Shown here: positions 7,301 to 51,211 of the stretch, piece after piece
How positions within the stretch are numbered: the stretch's first letter is position 1
Layout of the letters: each line of letters opens with the position of its first letter
Translations under genes and position numbers: made by a program
DNA from: an uncultured Actinomycetes bacterium
GTDB lineage: Bacteria; Actinomycetota; Thermoleophilia; Gaiellales; JAICJC01
Assembly (NCBI GenBank): GCA_963727235.1
Contig: CAVSFZ010000026.1
Span: 65,286-129,285, forward strand
Direction: 5' to 3'
Length of the DNA stretch: 64,000 nt
The notes under the pieces: model-generated
Databases searched by the model: none
What the model saw: the letters and a program-made list of their open reading frames with translations, nothing else
Told to the model about the DNA's origin: nothing

Positions 7301-7817
7301 CGTACACGTCGTCGCGGCCGAAGATCTGCACCAGCGTGTCCAGCTCCTGCCGCGCGCGGGCCTCGTCGCCGTCCACCAGCGCCTTGCTGACCCGGCCCGA
7401 GAGGCAACCCGACAGGGCGATGATGCCGTCGGCGTGCGCGGCCAGCTGCTCGAGGTCGACCCGCGGCTTGTACCAGTACCCGTCCAGGAACCCGGCCGAC
7501 ACCAGCCGCACCAGGTTGTGGTAGCCCTCGCGCGTCTCGGCCAGGAGCGTCAGGTGGCCGCGGCGTTCGCGCTGAGGCCGCGCGGCGTGGTCGTCGACCA
7601 CGTAGATCTCACAGCCCAGTATCGGCTTGATGCCGGCCTTGGCGCCGGCCTTGCAAAACTCCACCGAGCCCGCCATCGACCCGTGGTCGGTGAGCCCGAT
7701 GGCCGGCATCCCGAACTCTGCGGCGCGATTGACGAGAGGGCCGATCCGACACGCCCCATCGAGGATCGAGTACTCGCTGTGGACGTGGAGATGGGCGTAG
7801 CGCGGTTGGTTCGGCAC
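4389..7817 (-). CDS. dnaE: DNA polymerase III alpha subunit (replicative)
   Basis: 1142 aa. N-terminal PHP domain (YAHLHVHSEYSILDGA), the FLGLRNL motif in the fingers/palm region, and a C-terminal OB-fold region. GTG start at 7817. Confidence 0.97.
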   Translation of the reverse strand: MPNQPRYAHLHVHSEYSILDGACRIGPLVNRAAEFGMPAIGLTDHGSMAGSVEFCKAGAKAGIKPILGCEIYVVDDHAARPQRERRGHLTLLAETREGYHNLVRLVSAGFLDGYWYKPRVDLEQLAAHADGIIALSGCLSGRVSKALVDGDEARARQELDTLVQIFGRDDVYVEIQDGGIDIQTQITPQLVAMAGDAGLPLVGTGDVHYLTAADAIPHEAMLCIQTGDTLDNPNRFKFSNHGFYLRSPQEMYDLFAPRFGEEMLRATVEIADRCSATLDFEATHLPHFDLPGGETAIAYLRKLAEDGLRERYGSETPELRQRLEFELKTIEEMGFPDYFLIVWDFIRFARAEGISVGPGRGSAAGSLVAYCLRITDLDPMRYSLLFERFLNPGRKSMPDVDVDFAVAGRERVINYVAEKYGRRNVAQIITFGKMQPKAAIKDAGRVMGLPYGVVDRIAKFVPDGPKISFDMCMKAGAELRKSYDIDETTRKVVDMAMPLEGVVRNDSIHAAAVVIGDRPLTEYLPLQQKGTDSEVVTQFSMNDVEALGLLKMDFLGLRNLDVIDRAVELIEESSGVTVDVHSLPLDDTKTYEMMARGDATGVFQFESSGMRDALRQVRPTRFEDLIALVALYRPGPMQNIPRYAARLNGREQFSYPDPRLEPILSESAGISIYQEQLMLIARELAGFTPAEADDLRKAVGKKIASLMASLKDKFLKGCAANGVGAALAQQLWEDNERSADYSFNKSHAACYALISYQTAYLRANHPAEYMAALISSVMSTKDRVPFYVGECADMGIEVLPPDVNESQSDFAVVDGKIRFGLTAVKNVGEGAVRMIVEARSERPFESIWDFCERVDATVLNKRMLESLIAAGAFDCSGATRRGNAEALEQALAAGQKIQEDARRGQGSIFDMMGDDAAGGSATVTRVHPQVSTLEWDRDDLLRREKEVLGLYVSSHPLTPLRSQLARQVDAPLREFPNLRDGQVVTVGGIIAGVRQLVTKKGDTMAFVQLDDATDAIEVIVFAKTWENARDVLSPDSIVLIKGRVERKSDTEVKLMAMEATPFEAVADAGVVKLRVDAREAPATILEELKSLIGEYPGEAPVELRIDTTEGAKVLRFGSDYRVRADGDFMAEARALLGDAVIA

Positions 7818-30533: not shown

Positions 30534-30887
30534 TTGCGCGTGTGGTTCCTCCGGCCCAAGCCCCAGTTTGCCGACCTGATCCAGGTGCAGCTCGAGCTGT
30601 TCGAGCGTGAGCACCATCAGCTGCTCGAGCAGGTGGCCGCTGCCGAGCAGCAGTACCGCCGTGCCCGAGGCCCCGAATCCGAGGAGCTGTACGGCGACTA
30701 CATGGATCTGGTGGAAGCAGCCGAAGACGATCTCTTGGCGCTGCGCGACCGGTACGCCGAGACGATGGCGGCCCGCGAGCGCCGCCGGTATGAACGGGAG
30801 TTCACGCGCACGGCGGAGCGGACGCTGCCCACTCTGGTGGCACGCCGCCACTACCTGCGGGCGATCGACCCCGACAACGATCTGTGA
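30534..30887 (+). CDS. hypothetical helical, charged protein
   Basis: 117-aa ORF (TTG at 30534, or GTG at 30540) with coiled-coil-like composition. GTGA-coupled to dedA. Confidence 0.45.
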   Translation: MRVWFLRPKPQFADLIQVQLELFEREHHQLLEQVAAAEQQYRRARGPESEELYGDYMDLVEAAEDDLLALRDRYAETMAARERRRYEREFTRTAERTLPTLVARRHYLRAIDPDNDL

Positions 30888-31483: not shown

Positions 31484-31512
31484 TTGATTATCGAACGTAT
31501 GTTCGATAGTGT
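31484..31512 (+). promoter_or_regulatory. candidate imuB promoter: TTGATT-N17-TAGTGT
   Basis: -35 TTGATT (31484-31489), a 17-nt spacer, and -10 TAGTGT (31507-31512). The ATG is at 31525. Confidence 0.5.
31489..31508. promoter_or_regulatory. LexA SOS box (Gram-positive / actinobacterial type)
   Basis: Perfect palindrome TATCGAAC-GTAT-GTTCGATA. The core TCGAACGTATGTTCGA matches TCGAAC-N4-GTTCGA. It fills the spacer of the candidate promoter, 17 nt upstream of the imuB ATG. Confidence 0.85.
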
Positions 31513-31524
31513 GGGGAGCCCTCT

Positions 31525-32721
31525 ATGCCTCGGAATCACCGCACAATTGTCTGCACAATCGTCCCCCGCTTCGCCTTGCGGGTGGCCGCCGGCAACGAGG
31601 GTCGCCTGGCCGATCAGCCGCTCGCACTGGGCCCCGAGCCCGGCGGCCCTCCCCACATCGGCGAGGCCAGTGCAGCCGCTGCTGCCCACGGAGTCCGCGC
31701 CGGCATGCGGGTGGGCGAAGCGATCGCCCGCTGCCCCCAGCTGCAGCTGGTAACGCCCGATCCTGGAGCGGTGGCCATCGCCAACGAGGAGTTGCTCAGC
31801 CGGCTGGAACACCTCGGCGCGGCGGTGGAACCACTCGCACCCGGCGCCTCATTGTTTGCCGCCGACGGTCTTACGCGGCTGCATCACGGCACCATGCGGC
31901 TCTTGCACACGGTCTCCGCCGCGCTGCCCACGGGAGGTCGTGTCGGAGCCGGGCCGGGCCGCTTCATCGCCCGGGCGGCGGCGGCCAAGGCCCGCCACCG
32001 GCAACCGTTCACCGTTGAGCCCGGTGCCGCCGCCGGCTTTCTCGCCCCGTTGGCCGTTGCCCAACTCGACCTCGAGCCGTCACTCTGTGCCCAGCTGACC
32101 ACGCTCGGAATCGCCACCATCGGCGATTTGGCGGCGCTGCCGCTGCCGGCGGTGGCCGATCGCTTCGGCCGGAGTGGAATCGAGGCTTGGCGCCTGGCAC
32201 GCGGCGAGGACGAAGCTCACGTGATCCCCCGGATGCCGCCCGAGCCGCTGCGCGAGATGATCGAGTTCCCCGACCCCGTCGGTGATGAGCTGACGCTGCG
32301 CGGCGCCATCGCCGTCCTGGTCGATCGGCTGCTGGCCAACCCCGCCCGCAGAGGCCGACCGGCTCGCTCGGTCACGATCTCTGCCAGGTTGGCGGCGGGG
32401 GGATCGTGGCGACGACCGATCGCACTTCGTGACGCCACTGCCGAGCCGCGCCGGCTGCGGGATGCCGTCAGCCCGCGGCTGACGGAACTGCCCGCGGCGG
32501 TCATCCAGCTCGAGCTGGAGCTGACTGAGCTGGCCCAAAGCGGGGCCCAGCAGCTGTCGCTGCTGCATCCGCCCGAAGAGCTCTTGCGCGAGCGGGCGGC
32601 CGAGGCGGCCAAGCAGGTGCGCGCCGGCGTGGGTGAGGGCAGCCTGTGGCGAGTGGTCGAAGTCGCACCGTGGTCACGGGTCCCCGAGGGGCGCGACCTG
32701 CTGATCCCGTTTGACGGTTGA
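31525..32721 (+). CDS. imuB: ImuB-like catalytically inactive Y-family DNA polymerase
   Basis: Overall Y-family layout, but the N-terminus IVCTIVPRFALRVAAG lacks the catalytic D.D/E acidic residues. It is SOS-boxed, and dnaE2 is nearby. At 398 aa it is short for ImuB. Confidence 0.75.
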   Translation: MPRNHRTIVCTIVPRFALRVAAGNEGRLADQPLALGPEPGGPPHIGEASAAAAAHGVRAGMRVGEAIARCPQLQLVTPDPGAVAIANEELLSRLEHLGAAVEPLAPGASLFAADGLTRLHHGTMRLLHTVSAALPTGGRVGAGPGRFIARAAAAKARHRQPFTVEPGAAAGFLAPLAVAQLDLEPSLCAQLTTLGIATIGDLAALPLPAVADRFGRSGIEAWRLARGEDEAHVIPRMPPEPLREMIEFPDPVGDELTLRGAIAVLVDRLLANPARRGRPARSVTISARLAAGGSWRRPIALRDATAEPRRLRDAVSPRLTELPAAVIQLELELTELAQSGAQQLSLLHPPEELLRERAAEAAKQVRAGVGEGSLWRVVEVAPWSRVPEGRDLLIPFDG

Positions 32722-33648
32722 CGGCTCCCACACGAAGCTTGCGACCGCCACCACCACCATCAGCAGCGTGGCGGCCAGCGCGACGTGCACTGCCACCAAC
32801 TGCCACGGGAGGCCGTTGCGGTACTGCACCTCCCCCACGATTGCCTGACAACCGAGCAGCACAACCGCTGCCAGCGCCAGCCGTGCCGGCACCGTATGCG
32901 CCGCGCGGCGCCACAGCCACACGGCCAGCACCACCAGCAGGACAGTGAAGATGGTCGCGATGCGGACATGCAGCCAGGTCGACCGGTAGAAGTTCCACAG
33001 CCGCTCGATGGGGGTGTCGGTGCTGCCCGGATGAGGGCCGGAGGCGGTCACGAACGCCCCGGTGGTGACCAGCGCGAGACCGCCGATCGCGGTCACCCAG
33101 GCCAGTCCACCCATGCGCCGATCGCCGAGCAGCGCCGGGCCTCCCCGGTCGAGTCGGACAGCCCGCACGGTCACCCACGTCCACACTGCCACCACCACCA
33201 TCGCCAGCAGGAAATGCGACATCACCAGGAACGGATTGAGATCGAGCGCCACGGTGAGCGCTCCCAGGGGCACCTGGGCGATCGTTCCCAACGCCGCGGC
33301 CGCGGCGGCCAGCCTGACACCGCGACCGAGCCCAGCGGTGCGTCGAGCCATCACGGCCGCGATCACCGTCACGACCATCGCGATCCCCGAGATCACACGG
33401 TTGGAGAACTCGATCAACGCGTGGCCGGACGCCTGAGGTACAAGGCTGTTGGCCTCGCAGGTGGGCCAGTGCGGGCAGCCGAGGCCCGAGGCGGTCAGCC
33501 GCACCAGAGCACCCGTTGTGACCACCAGCCACAGCAGCCCGAGCGAGATCGCGGCGACGTACATGAACGTGTGGGCCGACACCCCGCGGCGTGCGGTCAA
33601 CCCGATCGGAGGGCGAGGGATGTCGGCGTCGTCGACTGAGTGGGACAT
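32674..33648 (-). CDS. ctaA: heme A synthase (COX15/CtaA)
   Basis: LVRLTASGLGCPHWPTC motif and a multi-TM protein rich in His. I preferred the ATG at 33648 over the TTG at 33708. Confidence 0.85.
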   Translation of the reverse strand: MSHSVDDADIPRPPIGLTARRGVSAHTFMYVAAISLGLLWLVVTTGALVRLTASGLGCPHWPTCEANSLVPQASGHALIEFSNRVISGIAMVVTVIAAVMARRTAGLGRGVRLAAAAAALGTIAQVPLGALTVALDLNPFLVMSHFLLAMVVVAVWTWVTVRAVRLDRGGPALLGDRRMGGLAWVTAIGGLALVTTGAFVTASGPHPGSTDTPIERLWNFYRSTWLHVRIATIFTVLLVVLAVWLWRRAAHTVPARLALAAVVLLGCQAIVGEVQYRNGLPWQLVAVHVALAATLLMVVVAVASFVWEPSTVKRDQQVAPLGDP

Positions 33649-33720
33649 GCCTGACCGGAGCGTATCGCCGATCGCCGAACCGTTCGTCCATCCCCCTTTG
33701 CAGGACAAATTTACAGTTTA

Positions 33721-33749
33721 TTGACCAGGTGACTTGAGTAACCTACTCT
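33721..33749 (+). promoter_or_regulatory. candidate sigma70-type promoter: TTGACC-N17-TACTCT
   Basis: Lies in a stretch that is ~47% GC by hand count (33701-33780). It is followed by the GGAGGGAGAGG ribosome-binding site and the GTG at 33785. Confidence 0.5.
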
Positions 33750-33784
33750 TCCCCGGTTAGTCCTTTCAGGGAGGGAGAGGTCGA

Positions 33785-34939
33785 GTGAAGCTCCGGGCAT
33801 TACGGGGGGCGCTGCCCCTGCTGGTACTCATGGCCGCGCTGATGATTGCGGCGGTCGCCGACGCCGCGACGGTGGCCAACAAGCCGCTGGGATCGGTTCA
33901 GGCCAACGGCAAGGTGAACGTGATCGTGATCAGCGGGAACACGGCGTACCTGGGTGGCGCATTCACTGCGATGCGACCGGCGGGATCGACCACCGGCGGC
34001 ACCACGCGTAATCACGCCGCTGCGGTTGATCTCAGCACGGGTGCGCTGCTTCCGTGGAATCCAAACGTCAACAGCGCCGTCAACTCACTGGCCGTGTCGG
34101 GAAGCACGGTCTACATCGGCGGCGTGTTCTCGACGGTGGGGAGCTCGAGCCGTAAGAACATCGCGGCCGTCAACGCGAGCACCGGCGCCGTCATCACCGG
34201 GTTCAAGACCGCCAACGTGAACCACGGCGTGTATGCCATCGCGCCGTCGGGCTCGCACCTGTACATCGGTGGAGCGTTCACAACCATCGGCGGAGCTCCG
34301 CGGGCATACGCGGCCGACGTCAGCCCCACCTCGGGAGCGCTCAATCCGGGATTCGCCCCGGTGCTCGACAACCAGGTGCGTGCGATCACACTGACATCGG
34401 ATGGGATCGTGCTGGGCGGAAACTTCACCACTCTCAACGGGGCGTCGAGCGTCTCGATCGGCAAGGTCAACTCGTCCGGTGGATCGATGACGTGGAACTG
34501 GCACGGCCCGCCGGGCGGCGGCACCCATCCGTTCCAGGTGGACGCGATCACACAGGACTCCACCGGAATCTATGCCGCAGGCACCGGCAACGGCGGCTCG
34601 TTCATGAAGTTCAACTCACAGGGCGACCTGCAGTTCATCGGCGGCACCAACGGCAACGTCACCGCGCTGGGACTGGACGGCGGCTACCTGTACGTGGGCG
34701 GCCACTTCCAGGGCTACTGCGGTCTGATCATGGGCAACAACTTCTGCACCGTGGCTGCGACCCGCCACAAGCTGCTGGCTGTCAGCACCAGCGACGGCAG
34801 CCTGCAGAGCTGGAACCCGACGGCCAACATGGCGCTGGGCGTGTTCGCGATGGATGCGGGTGGCGGTCACGTCGCGGTTGGTGGTGACTTCACCAAGATC
34901 GGCGGCGTCACCCAGCAGGGATTCGCCCGGTTCGGCTGA
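33785..34939 (+). CDS. secreted protein with a 7-bladed beta-propeller-like repeat
   Basis: Signal peptide MKLRALRGALPLLVLMAALMIAAVADA, then about 7 repeats of the V.A[IL]A.SGS.[LV]YIGG.F[TS]..GG..R...A.V....G pattern. The family is not verified. Confidence 0.7.
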   Translation: MKLRALRGALPLLVLMAALMIAAVADAATVANKPLGSVQANGKVNVIVISGNTAYLGGAFTAMRPAGSTTGGTTRNHAAAVDLSTGALLPWNPNVNSAVNSLAVSGSTVYIGGVFSTVGSSSRKNIAAVNASTGAVITGFKTANVNHGVYAIAPSGSHLYIGGAFTTIGGAPRAYAADVSPTSGALNPGFAPVLDNQVRAITLTSDGIVLGGNFTTLNGASSVSIGKVNSSGGSMTWNWHGPPGGGTHPFQVDAITQDSTGIYAAGTGNGGSFMKFNSQGDLQFIGGTNGNVTALGLDGGYLYVGGHFQGYCGLIMGNNFCTVAATRHKLLAVSTSDGSLQSWNPTANMALGVFAMDAGGGHVAVGGDFTKIGGVTQQGFARFG

Positions 34940-34947
34940 GCGTGATC

Positions 34948-34976
34948 GGGGGTGGCGGGGCGGGCCCGTCACCCCC
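34948..34976 (+). terminator. GC-rich hairpin after the propeller gene
   Basis: GGGGGTG (34948-34954) pairs with CACCCCC (34970-34976), beginning 9 nt after the stop. There is no clear U-tract. Confidence 0.3.
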
Positions 34977-35035
34977 CTTCGTCCGACGCAATCGGTGTCA
35001 TACTTCGACGAGCGGTTTTGCCACACCGCGGAAGG

Positions 35036-35218
35036 ATGGCTCGGGCTCCAGTGTCGGAAAAAGAATTGATCCTGTGTACGACGTGCCGGAAAGAGACTCC
35101 GCACGTCGTCGGCATGGTCATGGGCGGAGAGCCGCTCAAGCTCGTGCTCACCTGCGAGGTCTGCGGCAAGCGGCTCGAGAGCATCCCGCCGCCACCCAGC
35201 CCCAAACCCGGGGCATGA
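35036..35218 (+). CDS. small zinc-ribbon protein (60 aa)
   Basis: The ATG at 35036 follows GGAAGG. Two CxxC pairs: CTTC...CEVC. Pro-rich tail. Confidence 0.45.
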   Translation: MARAPVSEKELILCTTCRKETPHVVGMVMGGEPLKLVLTCEVCGKRLESIPPPPSPKPGA

Positions 35219-35234
35219 TTGCCAGACCCAAGGG

Positions 35235-35855
35235 TCAGTAACCCCGGAAGGGTTCCCACAGTACGATTGCCTGCTTGGCCGCGTCGCAGACAGGGGTCAC
35301 GTCGACCGTGAGGCGCGTCTCGGGGATGCTCAGGCCGGGCCACTCACACACGAACGTGAGCTCGCCCGGCGGTGGGAGGGGCCACAGCCAGTATCGCCAC
35401 TCCCAGCTGCCTCCACCGCCGCCGCCACCGTGCTCCGACAACAAGGGGCCATCGGGCGGAGTTTTCTCCTCAGTGGCCCCGTGTGCCACGATCCTGCCGG
35501 GAGCGCCGCCGTAGGTTGCGGCGGACGATCCATCCGCCAAGATCACACCGAGCCACAACCCCCGCTCGGCCAGGTTGCGACGCATCACCCGAGGAGTCAG
35601 GTGCATCTCCTCGTCGAACTGCTCTGCGACCTGCCTGCTTCCAGCGCGAGTCTCAACCTGAAACGACACCCCCGTCGGGTAGGCGACAACCCGCGTCACC
35701 ACCACCACCAAGTCAGCGCGCTGTACCAAGACCGCCCTCAGCGCGACCGGCATTCCCAGCACGTTCGTAGGCTCCGCGAACCACTCCGGCGGCGCCCACC
35801 AATCCGGGTCATCCGGCGGCTCGTCGGGCGGTGGTGGGGGATCGAAGAATCCCAC
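35235..35855 (-). CDS. hypothetical Pro/Trp-rich protein (206 aa)
   Basis: MGFFDPPPPPDEPPDDPDWWAPPEWF... followed by a Gly7 run, then WEWRYWLWPLPPPGELTFVCEWPG. Coherent ORF, no family recognised. Confidence 0.5.
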   Translation of the reverse strand: MGFFDPPPPPDEPPDDPDWWAPPEWFAEPTNVLGMPVALRAVLVQRADLVVVVTRVVAYPTGVSFQVETRAGSRQVAEQFDEEMHLTPRVMRRNLAERGLWLGVILADGSSAATYGGAPGRIVAHGATEEKTPPDGPLLSEHGGGGGGGSWEWRYWLWPLPPPGELTFVCEWPGLSIPETRLTVDVTPVCDAAKQAIVLWEPFRGY

Positions 35856-35916
35856 ACTTCCAACTTACCCCACGAGCAGCGTAAACTGTGCGTATCGTTA
35901 CTTCGGGGGTGTCGCG

Positions 35917-36267
35917 GTGCAGTGCAGCCATTGCGGAGGTGTGGTCGATCGGGAGTTCCGATACTGCCCTTGGTGCTCGATGGCGCAGGTCGGCAAGGCC
36001 GTCGCGCAGTTCCCTCCCCACCCCGAGGTTGACACTCCCGGTCGCGGGCTGCGCGTGTCGCGCTACTTCGATCCAGAGGTCGGCCCACTGCACACCCGCT
36101 TGAGCATCTACGACGCCGAGGGACGGGTCACCAGCGTGGTCGCGCTTGACGACGAGCACACCGCGGGGCTGTCCAAGTTCCTGCACACCCTGGCGGATGA
36201 CGCACCGACCGAGCGCATCGGCGACCCGTTGAAACGGTTGGTCGAGAGGCTCGATCCTCGGGGCTGA
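35917..36267 (+). CDS. zinc-ribbon-containing hypothetical protein (116 aa)
   Basis: GTG start. The N-terminal CSHCGG...YCPWC forms a four-Cys ribbon, followed by a globular C-terminal region. Confidence 0.5.
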   Translation: MQCSHCGGVVDREFRYCPWCSMAQVGKAVAQFPPHPEVDTPGRGLRVSRYFDPEVGPLHTRLSIYDAEGRVTSVVALDDEHTAGLSKFLHTLADDAPTERIGDPLKRLVERLDPRG

Positions 36268-36299
36268 CGCGCCGGCGGCCGCTTGGGTATCCTGCGGGA

Positions 36300-36554
36300 A
36301 TGGCGAAGCGAACGTCTGTTCGACAGATCGGCCTCCCCCGCAAGGTCAGGGTGATCTGCGACCGCGACGGCATCCCCACCGCCGTCGCCGATCGCTCGGT
36401 GGAGCATGTGCGCGACGAGTGGCGGGTGGATGAGGGCTGGTGGACGGGGAACAGGACGCATCGCCGCTATTTCGACCTGGTGCTTGAAGACGGCCGCAAC
36501 GTGGTGGTCTTCTGGGATCACCGCGGCCACCAGTGGTTCGGCCAGCGGGTGTGA
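36300..36554 (+). CDS. 84-aa protein resembling a stand-alone ImuB C-terminal module
   Basis: The segment EWRVDEGWWTGNRTHRRYFDLVLEDGRNVVVFWDHRGHQWFGQRV matches the GWW-x(n)-R[DR]Y[FY]-x(n)-G-x(n)-W pattern I recall at the C-terminus of long ImuB proteins. The stop TGA lies inside palindrome copy 2. Confidence 0.5.
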   Translation: MAKRTSVRQIGLPRKVRVICDRDGIPTAVADRSVEHVRDEWRVDEGWWTGNRTHRRYFDLVLEDGRNVVVFWDHRGHQWFGQRV

Positions 36555-36586
36555 ATAATTGGTGCCTGGCACCAATTATTCACACC
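36548..36586. repeat. palindromic element, copy 2 (39-nt perfect palindrome)
   Basis: GGTGTGAATAATTGGTGCC-T-GGCACCAATTATTCACACC. Contains the stop codon of ORF 36300-36554. Confidence 0.85.
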
Positions 36587-36935
36587 TCGGATCAATCACG
36601 GCTGGCGCGGCGGGCGGAGCGGAGGCGTGGCAAAGCCACGTTGAGCACCGCACCACCGCGTGGGACGCCGCCAGAACCGGCGCGGACCAGCCTCAGAGTA
36701 GGTGTGGCCGGCGCCTCAGTGAGACGCCGGCCACAGGGAGGGCCTGACGAAGACGACCGGGGTTGTCACTCCTGCTGGGGAGGCGTGATCGTCATCGCCA
36801 GACAAGGTGAATACTACGGGGTATTTGCCAAGATTTCACGGGTAGAAGTGTTACAGATCAGTCACAAAACACTCGCTAACCCCATTGCAAACGAATAATG
36901 GACAGACCGAAATAGGGCAGTTTCCAGATCCTGGC

Positions 36936-36965
36936 TTGACCGATTACGGCCACGTCTGGCATACT
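36936..36965 (+). promoter_or_regulatory. candidate promoter: TTGACC-N18-CATACT (TGg extended -10)
   Basis: Lies in a stretch that is ~49% GC by hand count (36841-36960). It is followed by the GGAGGGGG ribosome-binding site and ATGATG at 37010. Confidence 0.5.
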
Positions 36966-37009
36966 CGATCGTCCGACGCGTGTGCTTGGCTATCGCGTCG
37001 GAGGGGGTA

Positions 37010-37312
37010 ATGATGAGCGAGCCGGCAGCGTCCGTGGAGCACACAGTCATCACGTCCGAGGACGTCCTCGAGGATGTCGTGGCTGCGCCGCGCGCGTACA
37101 TGTATCAGGTGCATGTGCGCCGCCGGAGGGGATTCTGGAAGCGCTGGCAAGGACGGGTCGTAACCCGCGACCTGCAGGGCACCCGCAGGTTCTGGCCGTG
37201 GCGCATGAGCCATGATCGCGATCGCCTGGTGCAGCAGCTGTGGGAAGAGACGATGCGCGATATCCAGTGGCGAAACAGCGACACGCCGGTGGAGATCGTC
37301 GAGGTTTCCTAG
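37010..37312 (+). CDS. hypothetical 100-aa Arg/Trp-rich protein immediately upstream of dnaE2
   Basis: Good ribosome-binding site (GGAGGGGG-taATG). Sequence runs MMSEPAAS...VHVRRRRGFWKRWQGRVVTRDLQGTRRFWPWRMSHDRDRLVQQLWEE.... No family recognised. Confidence 0.5.
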   Translation: MMSEPAASVEHTVITSEDVLEDVVAAPRAYMYQVHVRRRRGFWKRWQGRVVTRDLQGTRRFWPWRMSHDRDRLVQQLWEETMRDIQWRNSDTPVEIVEVS

Positions 37313-37327
37313 AAGCGCTATGCTGAC

Positions 37328-37351
37328 CTGATCGAACACATGTTCGGTCAG
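37328..37351. promoter_or_regulatory. LexA SOS box upstream of dnaE2
   Basis: CTGATCGAAC-ACAT-GTTCGGTCAG is a 10+4+10 palindrome with one mismatch. The core TCGAACACATGTTCGG is at 37332-37347 and ends 7 nt before the dnaE2 ATG. Confidence 0.85.
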
Positions 37352-37353
37352 TC

Positions 37354-40300
37354 ATGCAGTACCCAGAACTCCACGCCCACTCCTGCTACTCGTTTCTCGA
37401 CGGCGCCTCACAGCCTGAGGAGATGGCGATGCGCGCCGCCAAGCTGGGCTACTCGACGCTTGCGCTGACCGACCACGACAGCCTGTCGGGATCCCTGGAG
37501 TTCGCCAACGCCGCCCACGACGCCGGGCTGCGCCCCATCACCGGCTGCGAGCTGACCCTGGTCGACGGCTCCCACCTGACCCTGCTGGTCGAGAACGAGC
37601 ATGGCTACCGGAATCTGTGCCGGCTGATCACCGTCGCTCACCGCGACGATCGCCGAGCACCCAGTACCACGCTCGACCAGGTCGCCCGCCACGCCGAGGG
37701 GCTGCACTGCCTCTCCGGTTGTGCCCGCTTGGGCGCAGTGGCTCGGCCGATGGGCCGGGGGCAGGTGCGTGAGGCGGAGCGCATCGCCCGGAAGCTGCGA
37801 GGAATCTTCGGCCGTGACCGCTTCGCCATCGAGATCAACCGGCCCTACTGGCGCGGTGACGCTCGCCGCAACCGGCTTTTGACCGAGCTGGCCGGCGCTC
37901 TGCGAGTGCGCCTGGCCGGCACCGGCGACGTGCACGCCCACTCTCCCCGCCGGGCCTTTCTCCAAGACGCGCTGGTCGCGATCCGGTGCAACTCCACGCT
38001 GGACGCGAGCGAAGCAGAGCGACGGGGAAACCACGAGTCGGTGCTGCGCACGCCGGACGACGCTGCCCACCTGTTTTCAGCCGAGGCCACCCGCGGCGCG
38101 ATCGAGGTGGCCGATCGCTGTCGATTCGACCTGACCCGCGATCTGGGGTATCGCTATCCCGACTTCTCGGACACCGGAGAACCGGCGCAGGCCGTATTGG
38201 AGCAGCTGTGCCGAGCCGAGCTCGACCGCCGCTACGCCGGCACCGGCATGGTCGCCGAAGCACGTCAGCGACTCGAGCAGGAGCTGGGCTTGATTGCCCA
38301 TCACCAGCTGGCAGGGTTCTTCCTGCTCCACCGAGACATCCTCGAGATGGCGCGGGCGGTGGCGGTGCGCGTGCGCGGTCGCAGCGCCGGGCGCAGACTC
38401 CTCCCCCCCGGCCGCGGTCGCGGCTCCAGCGTGGGATCGATTGTGTGCTATCTGATCGGGCTGTCTCATGTCGATCCGGTGGAGACGCGCCTGTTCCTGG
38501 GCCGGTTCCTCTCCAAGGATCTGGCCAGCGTCCCCGACATCGACCTCGACTTCCCCCGAGACGTGCGCGAGGGGTTGATGCTGGACGTGATCGAGCGATA
38601 CGGATCCGACCACGCCGCGTTGGTGGCGGCGTTCCCCACCTACAAGACCCGGGGCGCGATCCGCGATCTCGGCAAGGCGCTGGCACTCCCGCAGGGCGAG
38701 ATCGAGCGGATGGCCCGGCTGGCCGACTCATGGGGCCGGATCGAGCCCGAGCAGGTGGAGGAGCTGCGCGGCCGTCTGGACGCGCCCCGCTGGAAGGCGT
38801 TCTCGTTTCTGATGGAGGAGATCAGCGGCCTGCCCCGCCACCTCTCCCAGCACTCCGGCGGAATGGTGATCTCGACCACCCCGCTGGTGGAGCTGGTGCC
38901 GGTGATCCCGGCAGCCATGCAGGGGCGCCAGATCTGCCAGTGGGACAAGGACTCGTGCGCGGATGCCGGATTTCTCAAGATCGACCTGCTCGGTCTGGGG
39001 ATGCTCTCTGCAGTGGAGGAGTGTGTGGATCTGATCGCCCAGTCACGCGGCGCGCCGATCGATCTCAGCCGAGTCGGATTCGATGATGCCGACGTTTTTG
39101 CCGAGATCCGCGCGGCCGACACGGTGGGCGTGTTCCAGATCGAGAGCCGCGCCCAGATGCAGTCGCTGGTACAGACCAAACCGGAGAATCTCGCCGACCT
39201 GACGGTGCAGGTGGCGCTGGTGCGACCCGGCCCGATCGTGGGCGATGCGGTCAACCCGTACATCAAGCACCGGCGCGCCCGGCGGGATGACCCATTCTTC
39301 GAGCCCCCCTATGACCACCGGCTGCTGGAGCCGGTGCTGAACGACACGCTGGGCGTGGTGGTGTTTCAGGATCAGGTGCTCGAGGTCGCGATCGCACTGG
39401 CCGGATTCACCACCGGCGAGGCCGAGAGCCTGCGCCGGGCGATGAGCCGCAAGCGCAGCCGTGAGGCACTCGAGAGCCACTGGATCCGATTCCGCGATGG
39501 ATCCGCCGAGAACGGGGTGTCCGAAGAGACCGCCCGCACGGTGTTCGACAAAGTGGTCGCCTTCTCGGAATTCGGCTTCCCCAAGAGCCACGCCGCCGCC
39601 TTCGCAATCCTCGCCTACCAGTCGGCATGGCTCCACCGCGCCTACCCCGCGGAGTTTCTCTGCTCACTCCTGAACGCACAGCCGATGGGCTTCTACCCTC
39701 CGGCAACGCTCTTGCGCGACGGTGAGCGGCGCCAGGTCGAAACCCGCCCGCCGGACGTCAACCTCAGCCTGGCCGCCTGCTCGGTGGAGGATCACGGCGC
39801 GGCCATCCGGATCGGGCTGGGCTACGTCAAAGGTGTCGGTACCCGCTCCGAGCTGCTGGTCTCCGAGCGCGACCGAAACGGGCCCTTCACCGATCTGGGC
39901 GACCTGGTGCGGCGCTCACCGCTTGCAATCGACCTGCTGGAGTCGCTGGTCAAAGCCGGCGCCTGCGATCGGTTCGGCGACCGCCGGCAGCTGCTGTGGG
40001 AGCTACGGCTGCACCGCGCCCCCGCGGGCCCCGAGCACGCTCGCCAGCTGGCACTGGCACTCGACTCCGCCCCCACCCCGAAGCTTCGGCCGATGAGTGA
40101 TTGGGAGCGGATGGTGGCAGACCACGAGACCATGAGTCTCACCACCGGCCCCCATCCGATGGCGCTGCTGCGACCCAACATCGCGGAGGAGATCCGCTCT
40201 GCTGCATCACTTCGCGACGGTACCGGCGGCCATGTGACGATCGCAGGGGTGATGGTTGCCCGGCAGCGGCCCTCGACGGCCAAGGGCATCGTGTTCCTCT

Positions 40301-40617
40301 TGGTGGAGGACGAGTCCGGCATGGTCAACGTGGTGGTGCCGGCAAAGATCTACGAGCGTGATCGGATCGCGATCCGATCAGAGCCGCTGGTGCAGATATG
40401 GGGTCGGCTGGAGCGTCGCAACGACACCCTCAACGTGATCGCCGAACGGGTCGCGGCGCTGTCACATGTGGCCAGGCCGGAGATCCGCGCCCAGGCGGAG
40501 CGGGCCGCCGCCCGAGCGGCAGGTACCGGGGCCGGGCAGGGCGGCCGGGTGGCCGACATGCGGGCGCTGAAGGCTGCGGTGCCACGCGGTAACAGCTGGG
40601 GCCAGGGACGGCGTTAG
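37354..40617 (+). CDS. dnaE2: error-prone DNA polymerase DnaE2 (ImuC)
   Basis: 1087 aa. PHP N-terminus MQYPELHAHSCYSFLDGAS. Second C-family alpha subunit in the window, SOS-boxed, with no tau/beta-binding C-terminal extension like that of dnaE. Confidence 0.93.
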   Translation: MQYPELHAHSCYSFLDGASQPEEMAMRAAKLGYSTLALTDHDSLSGSLEFANAAHDAGLRPITGCELTLVDGSHLTLLVENEHGYRNLCRLITVAHRDDRRAPSTTLDQVARHAEGLHCLSGCARLGAVARPMGRGQVREAERIARKLRGIFGRDRFAIEINRPYWRGDARRNRLLTELAGALRVRLAGTGDVHAHSPRRAFLQDALVAIRCNSTLDASEAERRGNHESVLRTPDDAAHLFSAEATRGAIEVADRCRFDLTRDLGYRYPDFSDTGEPAQAVLEQLCRAELDRRYAGTGMVAEARQRLEQELGLIAHHQLAGFFLLHRDILEMARAVAVRVRGRSAGRRLLPPGRGRGSSVGSIVCYLIGLSHVDPVETRLFLGRFLSKDLASVPDIDLDFPRDVREGLMLDVIERYGSDHAALVAAFPTYKTRGAIRDLGKALALPQGEIERMARLADSWGRIEPEQVEELRGRLDAPRWKAFSFLMEEISGLPRHLSQHSGGMVISTTPLVELVPVIPAAMQGRQICQWDKDSCADAGFLKIDLLGLGMLSAVEECVDLIAQSRGAPIDLSRVGFDDADVFAEIRAADTVGVFQIESRAQMQSLVQTKPENLADLTVQVALVRPGPIVGDAVNPYIKHRRARRDDPFFEPPYDHRLLEPVLNDTLGVVVFQDQVLEVAIALAGFTTGEAESLRRAMSRKRSREALESHWIRFRDGSAENGVSEETARTVFDKVVAFSEFGFPKSHAAAFAILAYQSAWLHRAYPAEFLCSLLNAQPMGFYPPATLLRDGERRQVETRPPDVNLSLAACSVEDHGAAIRIGLGYVKGVGTRSELLVSERDRNGPFTDLGDLVRRSPLAIDLLESLVKAGACDRFGDRRQLLWELRLHRAPAGPEHARQLALALDSAPTPKLRPMSDWERMVADHETMSLTTGPHPMALLRPNIAEEIRSAASLRDGTGGHVTIAGVMVARQRPSTAKGIVFLLVEDESGMVNVVVPAKIYERDRIAIRSEPLVQIWGRLERRNDTLNVIAERVAALSHVARPEIRAQAERAAARAAGTGAGQGGRVADMRALKAAVPRGNSWGQGRR

Positions 40618-41150
40618 AACGGGACGGTGGCTCGCAGCGCGGGCAGCTTGCTGCAGCGGTTGCCGCCGTCGCTCGGCCTGATGGCCGTCCATCGCACCAG
40701 CCGGATGAACACACACTCGGTCGCCCCGGCGGTGGCTCTGGCGCACGCCCAGTGGGCGCTGCTGCCGGGCACCTTGGCGCAGGTGAAGCGGGTATCGCCG
40801 CCCACGTGCCGGGTGACGTCGGCGGCGACCGCCTGCGCGTCGACGGTGGTGGGCAGCATCTTCTCCAGAGCCGGCAGATCGCAGCGCGTGGGGTTGGGAG
40901 TGCCGGCTGCCACATGACCGGTGACTGACACGCCCACGACCACGCATTCCGACTCGGCCGGGTACACCACTGCACACGCCCACAGTGACCCGTTGGCCTT
41001 GAGTTCGCTGCATCCGATCGTCGATCCCGGATTCCGCAGCGCGATGTGGTCCTGGACCGTGGCCGCGTCGGCCCGCTGCCGGAGCTTGGCGTACCACAGT
41101 CCGCCGGCGAGGAGCACGATCACCAGCGAAACGGCAATGGGCCATTTCAT
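40614..41150 (-). CDS. membrane-anchored protein with an internally duplicated 4-Cys domain
   Basis: N-terminal TM segment MKWPIAVSLVIVLLAGGLWY, then two ~66-aa repeats that share the pattern C..[x]..WAC..[x]..EC..[x]..RC..LPAL. Confidence 0.6.
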   Translation of the reverse strand: MKWPIAVSLVIVLLAGGLWYAKLRQRADAATVQDHIALRNPGSTIGCSELKANGSLWACAVVYPAESECVVVGVSVTGHVAAGTPNPTRCDLPALEKMLPTTVDAQAVAADVTRHVGGDTRFTCAKVPGSSAHWACARATAGATECVFIRLVRWTAIRPSDGGNRCSKLPALRATVPF

Positions 41151-41194: not shown

Positions 41195-41431
41195 CTAGAC
41201 GAACAGATCTACAACGAGGGTAATCAGGAAGACGACTGCGAACCAGGCGAAGGCCGCCGCAACGATCGCAAGCACCACGTGTGCCTGCGCCCATTCCAGC
41301 AATCCACCGCGGCTCTCGTACTCCCACGAATCCTCGCTGGAGACGCCGACGCGTTCGAACAGAGATTCCTTCATTCCCTGAGCATACGGGCGGCGCCGCC
41401 GATCGCCAAGCCCATGTTCGGGGGGCTCCAT
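41195..41431 (-). CDS. small tail-anchored membrane protein, paralog B
   Basis: ...SEDSWEYESRGGLLEWAQAHVVLAIVAAAFAWFAVVFLITLVVDLFV. The ATG at 41431 overlaps the stop of paralog A (TGATG); an alternative ATG lies at 41374. Confidence 0.5.
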   Translation of the reverse strand: MEPPEHGLGDRRRRPYAQGMKESLFERVGVSSEDSWEYESRGGLLEWAQAHVVLAIVAAAFAWFAVVFLITLVVDLFV

Positions 41432-41616
41432 CACATCACCAAATCGATGATCAGGGTGAGCGTGTAGAGGATCGCAAACCACGTCAGCGCGGCCGCGACC
41501 GTTGCCACCACGACGTGTCTCACCGTCCAGTGGTGCAACCCATCGTCGTCCGTGTACTCCCACGCCTCATCGGCGTCGACTTGGTGGCGCATCGAGACCC
41601 CCTCCACGCGATTCAC
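41431..41616 (-). CDS. small tail-anchored membrane protein, paralog A
   Basis: ...DADEAWEYTDDDGLHHWTVRHVVVATVAAALTWFAILYTLTLIIDLVM. Colinear with paralog B. Confidence 0.5.
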   Translation of the reverse strand: MNRVEGVSMRHQVDADEAWEYTDDDGLHHWTVRHVVVATVAAALTWFAILYTLTLIIDLVM

Positions 41617-41736
41617 AATCTCTCATCGGCACTCAGGGGCGCAAAGTCGGACACCCGGGAGGGTGATCCCCCGGTGCGGGCCAAACGAAATGCTTACAGG
41701 ACGTTCACCGGGTACTGCAGGTGCGGGTGCCAGGGT

Positions 41737-42660
41737 GTGCGTATCCGCGCTCCGCTCCGAACAGTTGCTCTCGCGTTTCTCGTATGCACCGCGCTCGGTG
41801 TCACCGCCGCACCGGCGCTGGCCAGCCAGATGGTGGCTTTCGGTGTGCACAAGCCCGGGCTGATCGTCAACCGCCACGGCGTCGCACGAGTCTCGTACAC
41901 CACGTCCGCCGGTGTGCGGAAGCATGTGCTTGCCTGGGGTGCGATCAACGCGCTCACGCCCCGCCAGGGCGCCCGCCAGGTGCACTTCAAGTTTGACTAC
42001 TCGGGCGGACATGCGTCGTTCGGGAACGGCTACTGGAAGCGGATGCACAACTACTGCCGCCGCTACACAGGGCCCCGACTGACTCATCTGGTGGTTGCCT
42101 GCGATGCGCCCGACGGGTCGCACTGGGCGCTGCAATCGTGGCGTCGCGAGCTCAAGGACGGCGGCTGGGTGGGCACCGCCCGGCAGCAGGCGCCGGAGAT
42201 GCACCTCTCGCATTGGACCGGCAAGATGGCTCAGCTGTTCATGGACACCTCGTGGCTCCAGAGCGGCCGGTTCGATCGAGTGTTCGGCTACCTGCACTAC
42301 GACTCCAAGGGCGTGTACGGCTTCTCCGCCACGGCGGTGGGTGCGCCGACCGACAGCTTTGGCCGCAACATGTACATCGACACCCACAATCCGGCCTGGG
42401 GCAAAGGCTGGTTCCGCTTCAACTCCGGTCTGACCCATCGCACCGCCGGCAACTTCTGCCTCGGGCTCTATAGGCTCTACGGCCGTACCAATCCCGCCCG
42501 CGGCGACGCCTATCGCCTGACCGTGATGGGCCCCGGCGTGACGCCGATCGTCTCGCGGACGCACAAGGCGCCGGGTAGGTATTCCGCGGCGGTCGCCAAG
42601 CGCAAGCAGGCCGAGCTCAACTCGTTCACGCCCGCCAGCGACTCCTGCCGCAACGGCTAG
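41737..42660 (+). CDS. secreted hypothetical protein (307 aa), rich in aromatic residues and Gly
   Basis: The only in-frame start before the signal peptide is the GTG at 41737 (VRIRAPLRTVALAFLVCTALGVTAAPALA). The mature part is rich in W, Y, H and G. No family recognised. Confidence 0.55.
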   Translation: MRIRAPLRTVALAFLVCTALGVTAAPALASQMVAFGVHKPGLIVNRHGVARVSYTTSAGVRKHVLAWGAINALTPRQGARQVHFKFDYSGGHASFGNGYWKRMHNYCRRYTGPRLTHLVVACDAPDGSHWALQSWRRELKDGGWVGTARQQAPEMHLSHWTGKMAQLFMDTSWLQSGRFDRVFGYLHYDSKGVYGFSATAVGAPTDSFGRNMYIDTHNPAWGKGWFRFNSGLTHRTAGNFCLGLYRLYGRTNPARGDAYRLTVMGPGVTPIVSRTHKAPGRYSAAVAKRKQAELNSFTPASDSCRNG

Positions 42661-49623: not shown

Positions 49624-50361
49624 TCATGCGCGCAGGGTGCGCAGCTGGAAGCCGCCGTGGTACTCGTATGTGCGCTCCAGCACACGCAGCGCGTCACGGG
49701 TCGCGCGCAGTCGGGGACGCGGCTCTCCCAGCGGCAGCGCGAGCATCTGCTCGATTGCGGTGAGACTCTCCAGCTCCACGGCAAACGTGCCCGCCTGGCC
49801 GAGGCACTCATCACAGACAGCACCGCCTGCCGCCGGCGAGTACCCGGCCAGCGGCCCGGGCGAGCCGCACGCCGCGCACGCGGTGAGGTGCGGCAGATAG
49901 CCGCTCAGCATCAGCAGTTTCAGCTGAAACCCGAGGCCGAGCGGATCCAGCGCGGGATCGGCGTCGGAGCTCGCCGTCCAGGTCTCGAGCAGCGTCAGAA
50001 ACCGGTTCAAGCCGGCGAACATCTGAGGCTGAGGCTCCGGCTCGGTATTCAGCTTCAGCACCGCCTCGGCCCCGATCTGGCCGACGGCGAGGTTGTAGGT
50101 GCGCTCACGGACGGCGGCGTGGGAGCGGATGATGTCGGCGCCGGAAACCGTGTGCAGGTCACCGCGACCCTCGTGCAGCATCAGCGCGACGTGGGTGAGC
50201 GGCTCGAGCCGCCCGCCGAACCTCGATCCGGTCTTGCGCACGCCCTTGGCGATCGCATTCACCCGGCCCCGCTCGGATGTGAACAGGTGCAGCACCCGAT
50301 CGGCCTCCGAGAACCTGATCGACCGCAGCACCACCGCCTCGGTCTTGTATGACCTCCCCAT
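49624..50361 (-). CDS. recO: DNA repair protein RecO
   Basis: The ATG at 50361 gives MGRSYKTEAVVLRSIRFSEADRVLHLFTSERGRVNAIAKG. A C-terminal Cys cluster reads CAACGS...CDEC. Confidence 0.9.
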   Translation of the reverse strand: MGRSYKTEAVVLRSIRFSEADRVLHLFTSERGRVNAIAKGVRKTGSRFGGRLEPLTHVALMLHEGRGDLHTVSGADIIRSHAAVRERTYNLAVGQIGAEAVLKLNTEPEPQPQMFAGLNRFLTLLETWTASSDADPALDPLGLGFQLKLLMLSGYLPHLTACAACGSPGPLAGYSPAAGGAVCDECLGQAGTFAVELESLTAIEQMLALPLGEPRPRLRATRDALRVLERTYEYHGGFQLRTLRA

Positions 50362-50371
50362 TCCTGGGAGC

Positions 50372-51211
50372 CTACCGGCGGGGCTGGCGGGTGCAGTTCG
50401 GGCAGTAGTAGGTTCCGCGCTGCGCCACCCGGATCTTTCGGATCGGCCGGCCGCAGCGGGGACAGGGCTCGCCCTCCCGGCCGTAGGCGTTGAACCGTTC
50501 CTGCATCGTGCCGGACTGGCCGTCGACTCCTCGGTAGTCGCGGATGCTCGCCCCCTGCGCGGCAATCCCTCGCTCGAGCACCGCAATCACCGCAGCATGC
50601 ACCCGCTTGATCTCTGCGGTTCGCAGCGACCCGGCGAGCCGCTCCGGGTGGATCCGGGCCTCCCACAGCGCCTCGTCGGCGTAGATGTTGCCCACGCCGG
50701 CGACGATCTGCTGATTCAGGAGCACCGCCTTGATCGCGGCCGTGCGGCCGGCGATGGCATCGCGCAGGTCCTGCCACCTCCAGTCGGGCGAGAGCGGTTC
50801 GGGTCCCGCCCGCCGGCTGAGGTAGCGGTCAAGGCCACCCGGTTCGATGATGCGCATGGTGCCAAACCGGCGCTGATCCGAGTACAGCAGGAGCGCGCCG
50901 TCGTCCAGCTCAACCCGGGCGCGGAGATGCCGTACGTCGACGGCCGGCGCTTCCCGAGCCTGATGGTGGAACCAGCCCGTCATGCGCAGATGCACGACCA
51001 GTGTGCGGCCGCTCTCGAGCATGATCAGGAGGTACTTGCCGCGCCGGCCGATCGAGACGACCCGGTCGCCGTCGAGCTCCATGCCGATCATGATCGGGTC
51101 GTCAGGCGCGGTCAGGCGCCCGTCCAGGATCTCTGCCCGCTCGATCACACGTCCGGCCAGCCGGGGCTCCAGCCCGCGGCGCACCGTCTCGACCTCAGGC
51201 AGCTCGGGCAT
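50372..51211 (-). CDS. mutM: formamidopyrimidine-DNA glycosylase
   Basis: MPELPEVETVRRGL N-terminus and a C-terminal zinc finger CPRCG...YYCPNC. Confidence 0.94.
   Translation of the reverse strand: MPELPEVETVRRGLEPRLAGRVIERAEILDGRLTAPDDPIMIGMELDGDRVVSIGRRGKYLLIMLESGRTLVVHLRMTGWFHHQAREAPAVDVRHLRARVELDDGALLLYSDQRRFGTMRIIEPGGLDRYLSRRAGPEPLSPDWRWQDLRDAIAGRTAAIKAVLLNQQIVAGVGNIYADEALWEARIHPERLAGSLRTAEIKRVHAAVIAVLERGIAAQGASIRDYRGVDGQSGTMQERFNAYGREGEPCPRCGRPIRKIRVAQRGTYYCPNCTRQPRR

Follow-up and report, generated by a model that had tools for sequence, protein, structure and literature searches.

The 64-kb stretch of DNA analysed here (the window) comes from an uncultured Gaiellales-like lineage and carries three genes, imuB-N, imuB-C and dnaE2 (Table 1). 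Together these very probably (a probability of roughly 0.85) encode a LexA-controlled translesion mutasome without ImuA, of the published DnaE2X-iPolY-ImuB-C-RecA type. The observations behind this reading are the identities of the genes, the split of ImuB, the loss of its active site, the conservation of its motifs, the placement of the LexA (SOS) boxes and their correlation with breaks in the cassette, and a neighbourhood in which no ImuA or RecA gene is found. Published work already accounts for an SOS mutasome that lacks ImuA: in the split-ImuB/DnaE2X arrangement RecA would take its place. The new findings are modest, namely the LexA box that a gene carries of its own at cassette breaks and the orphan orf110 family inside the cassette. 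To our knowledge, no component of the split-ImuB/DnaE2X variant has been characterised experimentally.

The type was described as the 'Kyrpidia tusciae-type' variant by Timinskas & Venclovas in 2019 (PMC6511836) and was named and modelled in NAR 2026 (PMC12926913), with Sphaerobacter thermophilus, Dehalogenimonas, Deinococcus deserti and Kyrpidia tusciae as examples. In the latter work iPolY and ImuB-C together are called 'a split ImuB', the class is proposed to be the precursor of ImuABC, and DnaE2X genomes are reported to lack imuA and imuB. The cultured Thermoleophilia Conexibacter woesei and Baekduia soli are scored DnaE2X-positive in its supplementary table.

Split ImuB and the DnaE2 polymerase

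The window has ~68% G+C, and real genes among its open reading frames (ORFs) were chosen by third-position GC; ~60 of the resulting proteins were scanned with Pfam. A first-pass annotation, made from the sequence alone, had labelled one of the genes imuB-like, and the label holds. The protein, ImuB-N, matches Pfam IMS (2.7e-10) and IMS_C (3.8e-07) and lies far under the cutoff of every NCBIfam DinB model. When it is aligned with HMMER to E. coli DinB structures, residues D8/D10/D103/E104 of E. coli DinB are I12/P14/G107/A108; all catalytic carboxylates are lost, which makes ImuB-N an inactive, ImuB-like scaffold.

The C-terminal part of ImuB-N holds a clamp-type motif Q-x-x-L-L (QLSLL, residues 342-346). 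It is followed at residues ~350-378 by a motif resembling the RecA N-terminus (RecA-NT), RERAAEAAKQVRAGVGEGSLWRVVEV, so that at the sequence level the order expected at an iPolY C-terminus is found. In a MAFFT alignment this motif is in register with the RecA N-termini of E. coli and M. tuberculosis, and the same motif is visible in the RecA sequences of the published supplement (PMC12926913). The protein ends in a conserved terminal peptide, SRVPEGRDLLIPF, for which the clade pattern is S-R-x-P-E-x-R-x-L-L-x-P-[FY]. Conservation of the last 60 residues extends over ~60 related loci, whose ImuB-N proteins are 395-413 aa long, with the clamp pattern Q-x-x-L-[LMI]. One locus (L051) has an apparently disrupted tail. 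End to end, ImuB-N is 38% identical to the Sphaerobacter iPolY-wE2X protein ACZ39475 (E=1e-54), the tails being almost identical, and it is 39% identical to residues 13-433 of P0077, a fused ImuB (E=5e-57). The published map of M. smegmatis ImuB places the clamp motif at 352-356, RecA-NT at 360-387, a linker at 388-421 and ImuB-C at 422-525 (PMC11791113). ImuB-N follows the same order as this map, and its end, residue 398, falls in the stretch that corresponds to the linker.

The missing C-terminal part is encoded by imuB-C. Its 84-aa product has no Pfam or NCBIfam match even at E<=10, and its identity was obtained solely from an exhaustive profile search, made against 1.84 billion representative proteins. 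The product is a member of a family of ~84-aa proteins that is strongly conserved. The profile finds 1155 relatives, mostly standalone proteins of 80-110 aa, together with several long ones that match at their extreme C-terminus. Among the long matches are P0077 (525 aa, residues 448-524, E=7e-18) and P0121 (484 aa, residues 421-484), both of which carry an IMS domain and are thus full-length ImuB proteins. Aligned directly, imuB-C is 43% identical to residues 449-523 of P0077 (E=4e-15). On these alignments imuB-N and imuB-C together are one ImuB, colinear with the fused 525-aa P0077. In metagenome contigs the context of P0077 is a single contig of 1.5 kb, uninformative on imuA'.

Among published ImuB-C proteins, imuB-C is 35% identical to ACZ39476 of Sphaerobacter and 31% identical to ADJ25744 of Dehalogenimonas. 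Its AlphaFold model is all-beta with six strands (pLDDT 85, pTM 0.73), and a structure search with the model returned no significant match in the PDB. Both results fit the published account, in which ImuB-C is a beta-barrel with no close relative in structure (PMC12926913). The profile also matches P0140 (635 aa), in which ImuB-C lies N-terminal to the start of a PHP domain, a potential ImuB-C/DnaE2 fusion. The sequence downstream looks frameshifted and may be an artefact of assembly or gene calling, so this protein was not used to support a contact between ImuB-C and DnaE2.

The polymerase itself scores 960.7 bits against NCBIfam NF004225, 'error-prone DNA polymerase' (cutoff 939). Its PHP / pol3-alpha / finger / HhH / OB architecture is complete and the catalytic motif PDIDLDF is kept at residues 395-401, all of which bears out its earlier designation as dnaE2. 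Over the first 400 aa it is 53% identical to the DnaE2X of Sphaerobacter and 44% identical to that of Dehalogenimonas, versus 35% for the DnaE2A proteins of P. aeruginosa and M. tuberculosis. By these pairwise values it is assigned to the DnaE2X subgroup, not to DnaE2A. A replicative DnaE1 of 1142 aa with the full pol III alpha architecture is also encoded in the window, ~30 kb from dnaE2 (4389-7817, minus strand); its first 400 aa share 35% identity with the DnaE2X reference.

Table 1. Features of the mutasome region, with positions counted from the first letter of the window
Feature	Position	Strand	Description
imuB-N (iPolY)	31525-32721	+	398-aa catalytically inactive Y-family polymerase scaffold
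imuB-C	36300-36554	+	84-aa standalone ImuB C-terminal beta-barrel domain
dnaE2 (DnaE2X type)	37354-40617	+	1087-aa error-prone C-family polymerase, catalytic subunit
SOS (LexA) box 1	31491-31506		TCGAACGTATGTTCGA; 19 nt before the imuB-N ATG
SOS (LexA) box 2	36308-36323		GCGAACGTCTGTTCGA; overlaps imuB-C codons 3-8
SOS (LexA) box 3	37332-37347		TCGAACACATGTTCGG; 20 nt past the orf110 stop codon, 7 nt before the dnaE2 ATG
orf110	37010-37312	+	~100-aa Arg/Trp-rich orphan between imuB-C and dnaE2
Near-perfect palindrome	36548-36586	+	39 nt, 19-bp stem; overlaps the imuB-C stop codon; RNAfold -32.5 kcal/mol
Promoter-like site for orf110	36936-36965	+	TTGACC-18-(TG)CATACT, from a consensus scan; no LexA box
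ctaA	32674-33708	-	COX15/CtaA haem A synthase; Pfam PF02628, 6.8e-23; unrelated to the mutasome
Secreted repeat protein	33785-34939	+	probably beta-propeller; weak Pfam Rax2, DUF5122 (E=0.02-0.04); unrelated
Pro/Trp-rich ORF	35235-35855	-	206 aa; no Pfam family
Zinc-ribbon ORF	35917-36267	+	116 aa; DUF7577, DUF7575 just under cutoff

LexA boxes and breaks in the cassette

With the Actinobacterial/Gram-positive consensus TCGAAC-N4-GTTCGA, three LexA boxes are recognised, one at the start of each mutasome gene. The core CGAAC-N4-GTTCG occurs at exactly 3 sites in the 64 kb versus 0.07 expected, and 3 sites were reached in 0/100 shuffles. The boxes match the consensus at 16/16, 15/16 and 15/16 positions and lie at -34 (imuB-N), +9 (imuB-C) and -22 (dnaE2) from the start codons. 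The first-pass annotation had described two LexA-boxed units; its boxes before the imuB-like gene and dnaE2 stand, and the box of imuB-C had been overlooked.

Box 1 falls within the 17-nt spacer of a TTGATT (-35-like) / TAGTGT (-10-like) pair, a putative promoter whose hexamers were read by eye. Box 2 lies inside the imuB-C coding sequence and itself encodes R-T-S-V-R, so that the conserved N-terminal residues R-T-x-V-R of ImuB-C are specified by the in-gene box. In other clades the imuB-C box is found 24-47 nt upstream of the gene, not inside the coding sequence. A promoter-like TGACGC-17-TATCCT pair ends 7 nt 5' of the imuB-C ATG, which suggests that the imuB-C transcript is leaderless.

The same placement recurs among relatives. 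Species-representative genomes scanned with the profile yielded 428 that encode an ImuB-C relative, and the best 80 of their loci, taken for comparison, are all from Thermoleophilia (Gaiellales, Solirubrobacterales and Thermoleophilaceae), for the most part soil metagenome-assembled genomes. The nearest relative, CAVRSB01, has a protein identity of 96-98% to the window. The imuB-N box stands at a like offset (about -30) in 57/58 related loci, and of the 158 GAAC-N4-GTTC sites in 1.37 Mb of related loci, 146 are at starts of imuB-N, imuB-C or dnaE2. A fourth exact GAAC-N4-GTTC in the window (ATGAACGGGAGTTCAC, 30792-30803), 92 nt before dedA, was rejected as a box; without the TCGAAC/GTTCGA flanks, and inside the coding sequence of orf117, it is probably there by chance. 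No exact CGAAC-N4-GTTCG box lies near recN, recO or fpg (60983-62656 and 49624-51211, both on the minus strand). The recN gene is directly downstream of an NAD kinase gene.

imuB-N, imuB-C and dnaE2 are linked in nearly all of the ~80 Thermoleophilia loci and contiguous in many. In nearly every locus dnaE2 follows imuB-C in the same orientation; imuB-N is upstream in most, and in the ~60 loci with both parts imuB-N and imuB-C are never fused. Almost all loci combine imuB-C with both dnaE2 and the dead Y-family gene, and in nearly all imuB-C stands beside dnaE2. The first-pass annotation had proposed, as one of two alternatives, that one of three small ORFs near dnaE2 substitutes for ImuA. For this ORF the proposal is half right: imuB-C, with a LexA box of its own, does belong to the mutasome, as the detached C-terminal domain of ImuB and not as a substitute for ImuA.

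Many loci form a tight three-gene cassette with a single LexA box 5' of imuB-N, and this single-operator operon of imuB-N, imuB-C and dnaE2 is the ancestral layout in Thermoleophilia. imuB-C has its own box in 42/46 loci where it is separated from imuB-N versus 2/35 where the two are adjacent (Fisher p 6e-16), and dnaE2 in 46/48 loci where it is separated from imuB-C versus 1/25 where it is adjacent (Fisher p 7e-16); these are raw counts, in which the shared ancestry of loci is not corrected for. As a near-perfect rule, then, cassette breaks carry their own LexA box, and since each detached gene has one, co-regulation would be kept in the broken cassette. This provides a quantitative picture in which predicted LexA control follows each gene upon operon breakage. 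If true, the box-per-break rule is a clean natural example of operator gain keeping co-regulation after operon fragmentation. The broken-up genes of this clade, each with a box to itself, may also be handy for testing the role of each part.

In the window unrelated genes stand at both junctions, over 3.6 kb between imuB-N and imuB-C and over 0.8 kb between imuB-C and dnaE2. The three-box layout with ctaA and others between imuB-N and imuB-C is shared by L001-3 and L011 at 72-88% protein identity. Elsewhere the inserted genes differ among lineages and include GGDEF, GNAT/HD, PGA_cap, T2SS ATPase, AlkZ, Cu/Zn SOD and HepT genes, besides ctaA and others. This heterogeneity marks them as passengers.

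Insertions at both junctions, like the apparently disrupted imuB-N tail of L051, could also be the signs of a decaying cassette, with the insertions marking loss of function and the pieces left as relics. Decay is nonetheless extremely unlikely. All three ORFs are intact and show the third-position GC bias of coding sequence, DnaE2 keeps its catalytic motif, and the motifs of ImuB-N and ImuB-C are strongly conserved. Every detached gene carries a near-perfect LexA box, and the three-box layout is maintained in relatives as distant as L001-3 and L011.

imuB-C and dnaE2 occur without imuB-N within 10 kb at a number of Gaiellales loci (L016, L018, L025, L026, L033-L038, L043 and L048). They look like the 'DnaE2-[ImuB-C] only' systems known from the literature; alternatively, imuB-N may have been relocated to a distant site.

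ImuA, RecA and orf110

In the canonical systems a RecA-fold ImuA or ImuA' is encoded with imuB. No such gene is found beside imuB-N, imuB-C or dnaE2, either here or in 87 related loci. Among the ~60 Pfam-scanned proteins of the window none has a domain of RecA, ImuA or SulA type. Queries with ImuA1 (P. aeruginosa), ImuA2 (M. tuberculosis), ImuA3 (T. terrifontis) and RecA gave no tblastn match in the window. With the same queries phmmer and jackhmmer found none among 10,327 six-frame ORFs from the window and the 87 loci with neighbourhoods of +/-10 kb, the best E being 0.11. The earlier statement that the 64 kb holds no RecA-like ORF is thus upheld by all four methods. The gene upstream of the imuB-like gene, earlier named dedA, is confirmed as such by Pfam (DedA/VTT).

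One alternative is a canonical ImuA'-ImuB-DnaE2 system in which imuA' has been relocated in the genome and the short ImuB and the small ORF next to dnaE2 are incidental. Only 64 kb of the genome is at hand, the cassette is clearly prone to rearrangement, and the relatives P0077 and P0121, at ~40% identity, are fused ImuB proteins. Even so, a relocated imuA' is very improbable. ImuB is split in all of the ~60 loci with both parts, DnaE2 is of the X type whereas the A type is the only one found with ImuA (PMC12926913), and no ImuA homologue appears in the window or the 87 neighbourhoods. For genomes with the DnaE2X-iPolY-ImuB-C architecture the literature reports no imuA and predicts RecA to be the partner (PMC6511836; PMC12926913). 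From these published surveys of the same architecture, an imuA' elsewhere in the source genome, the other option of the first-pass annotation, is not expected.

The preferred reading, an ImuA-less mutasome with RecA as a subunit, can be put into a working scheme in which LexA binding, the participation of RecA and the contacts between proteins are taken from the literature. DNA damage would lead to RecA-stimulated cleavage of LexA, derepressing the three operators so that the three proteins are made together. ImuB-N would tether the complex to the beta clamp by its clamp-type motif, and its RecA-NT motif would bind RecA itself where ImuA, a RecA paralogue, is used in other systems. ImuB-C would bridge ImuB-N and DnaE2. 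In canonical, fused ImuB the ImuB-C part is the chief docking site for DnaE2's PHP domain, and such docking of ImuB-C on the PHP domain has been modelled for M. tuberculosis and Sphaerobacter (PMC12926913). Probably ImuB-C also docks on the terminal peptide of ImuB-N, by analogy with UmuC-UmuD' and YqjW-YolD (PMC6511836). DnaE2, as the catalytic polymerase, would then perform the error-prone bypass. In this genome unrelated genes would have been inserted at both junctions of the ancestral operon, each detached gene having its own LexA box.

Several points weigh against this reading. The DnaE2X assignment is a purely pairwise identity over the first 400 residues with two references per group, the search for imuA spanned only the 64 kb and the +/-10 kb neighbourhoods, and the statistics of boxes and breaks are uncorrected for phylogenetic relatedness of the loci. 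No lexA gene is among the Pfam-scanned proteins and no recA is in the window, so that LexA control and partnership with RecA are predicted, resting on conserved motifs and published models. Finally, this reading assigns no role to orf110, which recurs inside the cassette.

Homologues of orf110 are found in 30 loci, all Gaiellales, in every case between imuB-C and dnaE2 and in the same orientation, and orf110 stays beside imuB-C where other genes are inserted. Tandem duplicates between imuB-C and dnaE2 are seen in L013, L088 (5637-6285) and L089 (4887-5636). Loci seeded from orf110 homologues again show the order imuB-C, orf110, dnaE2, apart from L090, a short contig without an adjacent dnaE2. 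The family comprises 56 clusters, all annotated as hypothetical, with evident conservation at the protein level. Roughly half of the Gaiellales cassettes lack orf110, as do all those of Solirubrobacterales and Thermoleophilaceae. In loci without it the gaps between imuB-C and dnaE2 contain no ImuA-like gene, and the genes inserted there are heterogeneous. No relative of orf110 was found in Pfam, NCBIfam or the PDB, and a Pfam scan of 30 members gave no consistent family. A relationship to ImuB-C was considered and dismissed by profile-profile comparison, and similarity to ImuA or RecA is not detectable either. The AlphaFold model of orf110 has a disordered N-terminus and a beta4-alpha-beta core (pLDDT 80-89), for which a fold search gave no significant match to solved structures.

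In no related locus does orf110 have a LexA box of its own, and the spacer around it in the window contains signals that would set it apart from imuB-C. The palindrome at the end of imuB-C has an AT-rich core, GGTGTGAATAATTGGTGCC-T-GGCACCAATTATTCACACC. A second, GC-rich hairpin follows ~150 nt downstream (~36703-36735; RNAfold -31.5 kcal/mol), and both hairpins lack a U-tract. Besides the window, the closest genomes L008, L009 and L058 keep the palindrome but L010/L011 do not, and the second hairpin is present in L011 as well. Taken alone the palindrome could be a terminator or a protein-binding site; the two hairpins together probably terminate the imuB-C transcript. Beyond them, the promoter-like site of orf110 is followed by a leader hairpin (36971-37001; fold -21.1 kcal/mol) that abuts the ribosome-binding site of orf110. 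This site (TTGACC-18-TGgCATACT) and the leader hairpin are invariant in the window, L008-L011 and L058, while the flanking spacer has diverged, which suggests a regulated, LexA-independent expression of orf110. A search of the AT-richer spacer (36200-37400) against Rfam gave no match.

That orf110, instead of or besides RecA, fills the role of ImuA, as an accessory subunit or a DnaE2 regulator specific to the lineage, is suggested by its fixed position and strand, by its tandem duplicates at the same spot and by the conservation of its family. It is improbable all the same. orf110 resembles neither ImuA nor RecA nor ImuB-C in sequence and no solved structure in fold, it is dispensed with by many cassettes, and it never has its own box; in the window it comes, behind two hairpins, with a conserved promoter-like site to itself that lacks a box. 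The linkage could reflect a single ancestral insertion inherited vertically, and the L090 homologue stands apart from dnaE2. As one of the earlier candidates to stand in for ImuA, orf110 recurs by dnaE2 within Gaiellales, but any similarity to ImuA, RecA or ImuB-C is beneath detection. The gene could encode an accessory factor or just be a passenger kept by synteny, and its conserved position may reflect a function or one old insertion. A wider proposal, rather unlikely, would make orf110 an undescribed, Gaiellales-specific fourth component or regulator of the mutasome. In it orf110 could, for example, be made constitutively, bind ImuB-C or DnaE2's PHP domain, and gate the access of the error-prone polymerase.

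Known systems and neighbouring genes

The window shares with the DnaE2X-iPolY-ImuB-C-RecA systems an inactive PolY of 393-423 aa that ends in a clamp motif, a RecA-NT motif and a '...VEVxPWSRIPExR...' tail. Also in common are a standalone ImuB-C of 80-95 aa and a DnaE2 of the X group, and no ImuA was found in the window and the 87 loci searched. The proteins resemble those of Sphaerobacter end to end, at the identities given above (iPolY 38%, ImuB-C 35%, DnaE2 53% over the first 400 aa). The differences here are an operon broken at both junctions with a LexA box for each piece, the orphan orf110 wedged between imuB-C and dnaE2, and a host lineage that is unnamed in PMC6511836 and PMC12926913. 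The related loci indicate that split-ImuB/DnaE2X is the standard system across uncultured soil Thermoleophilia.

With the canonical ImuA-ImuB-DnaE2 systems (ImuA'-ImuB-DnaE2 of M. tuberculosis; imuAB-dnaE2 of P. aeruginosa and Caulobacter) it has in common the control by LexA, predicted here from the boxes, an error-prone DnaE2, and a dead Y-family scaffold with clamp motif, RecA-NT and ImuB-C in the domain order of mycobacterial ImuB. It differs in that no ImuA or ImuA' is found, in the subgroup of DnaE2 (35% to DnaE2A vs 53% to DnaE2X) and in that ImuB is not a single chain, ImuB-C being a separate polypeptide from a gene 3.6 kb downstream of imuB-N.

E. coli Pol V (UmuD'2C-RecA-ATP) is likewise LexA-regulated. 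Its Y-family subunit binds RecA through a motif like RecA-NT, and the C-terminal tail of that subunit binds a small beta-rich accessory subunit (PMC6511836). In Pol V, however, the Y-family subunit is an active polymerase, there is no DnaE2, and UmuD' has an SH3-like fold whereas ImuB-C is reported to be an unrelated beta-barrel (PMC12926913). An SOS-linked standalone ImuB-C beside a translesion polymerase is seen also in an operon of Geobacter sulfurreducens, lexA-imuB-C-polY, and in the actinobacterial DnaE2B-[ImuB-C] systems. Those have either an active PolY without DnaE2 or a DnaE2 without PolY, whereas here an inactive PolY, ImuB-C and DnaE2 occur together.

The genes between imuB-N and dnaE2 had been described as unrelated. 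This is correct for ctaA and for the propeller, zinc-ribbon and Pro/Trp-rich ORFs but not for imuB-C, the third conserved gene of the cassette. Only the closest relatives (L001-3, L008-L011 and L058) have ctaA here, contiguous cassettes lack it, and the secreted repeat protein is present in near-identical genomes only. The zinc-ribbon ORF, the remaining small ORF proposed as a substitute for ImuA, is found in the window and the near-identical L008 only and shows no co-occurrence with the mutasome. By tblastn over related loci the Pro/Trp-rich ORF matches the window alone. The gap between the propeller and zinc-ribbon genes is ~978 nt in the window versus ~376 nt in the 97%-identical L008, which points to a recent indel of ~600 nt.

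By Pfam the neighbourhood in the window is one of housekeeping genes, with rpsB, tsf, pyrH, frr, uppS, cdsA, dxr, rseP, ispG and dnaE1, and further scpAB, hisD, aroA, ppdK, glyQS, recO, fpg, xerC/D-like, pyrG and recN. Upstream of imuB-N, with or without dedA in between, a 117-aa helical protein without a Pfam family (30534-30887, plus strand) is encoded throughout Gaiellales. Its gene is outside the LexA box, and the association may be a functional link or mere synteny. Just 3' of dnaE2 lies an ORF of 178 aa (40614-41150, minus strand) that is Cys-rich, has a hydrophobic segment at its N-terminus and matches no family. It is followed by a long ORF, also without a family match (41281-42660, plus strand), for which the true start is probably an internal one located at a signal peptide. 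In L003 the position of the ORFs directly downstream of dnaE2 is taken by a 323-aa gene.

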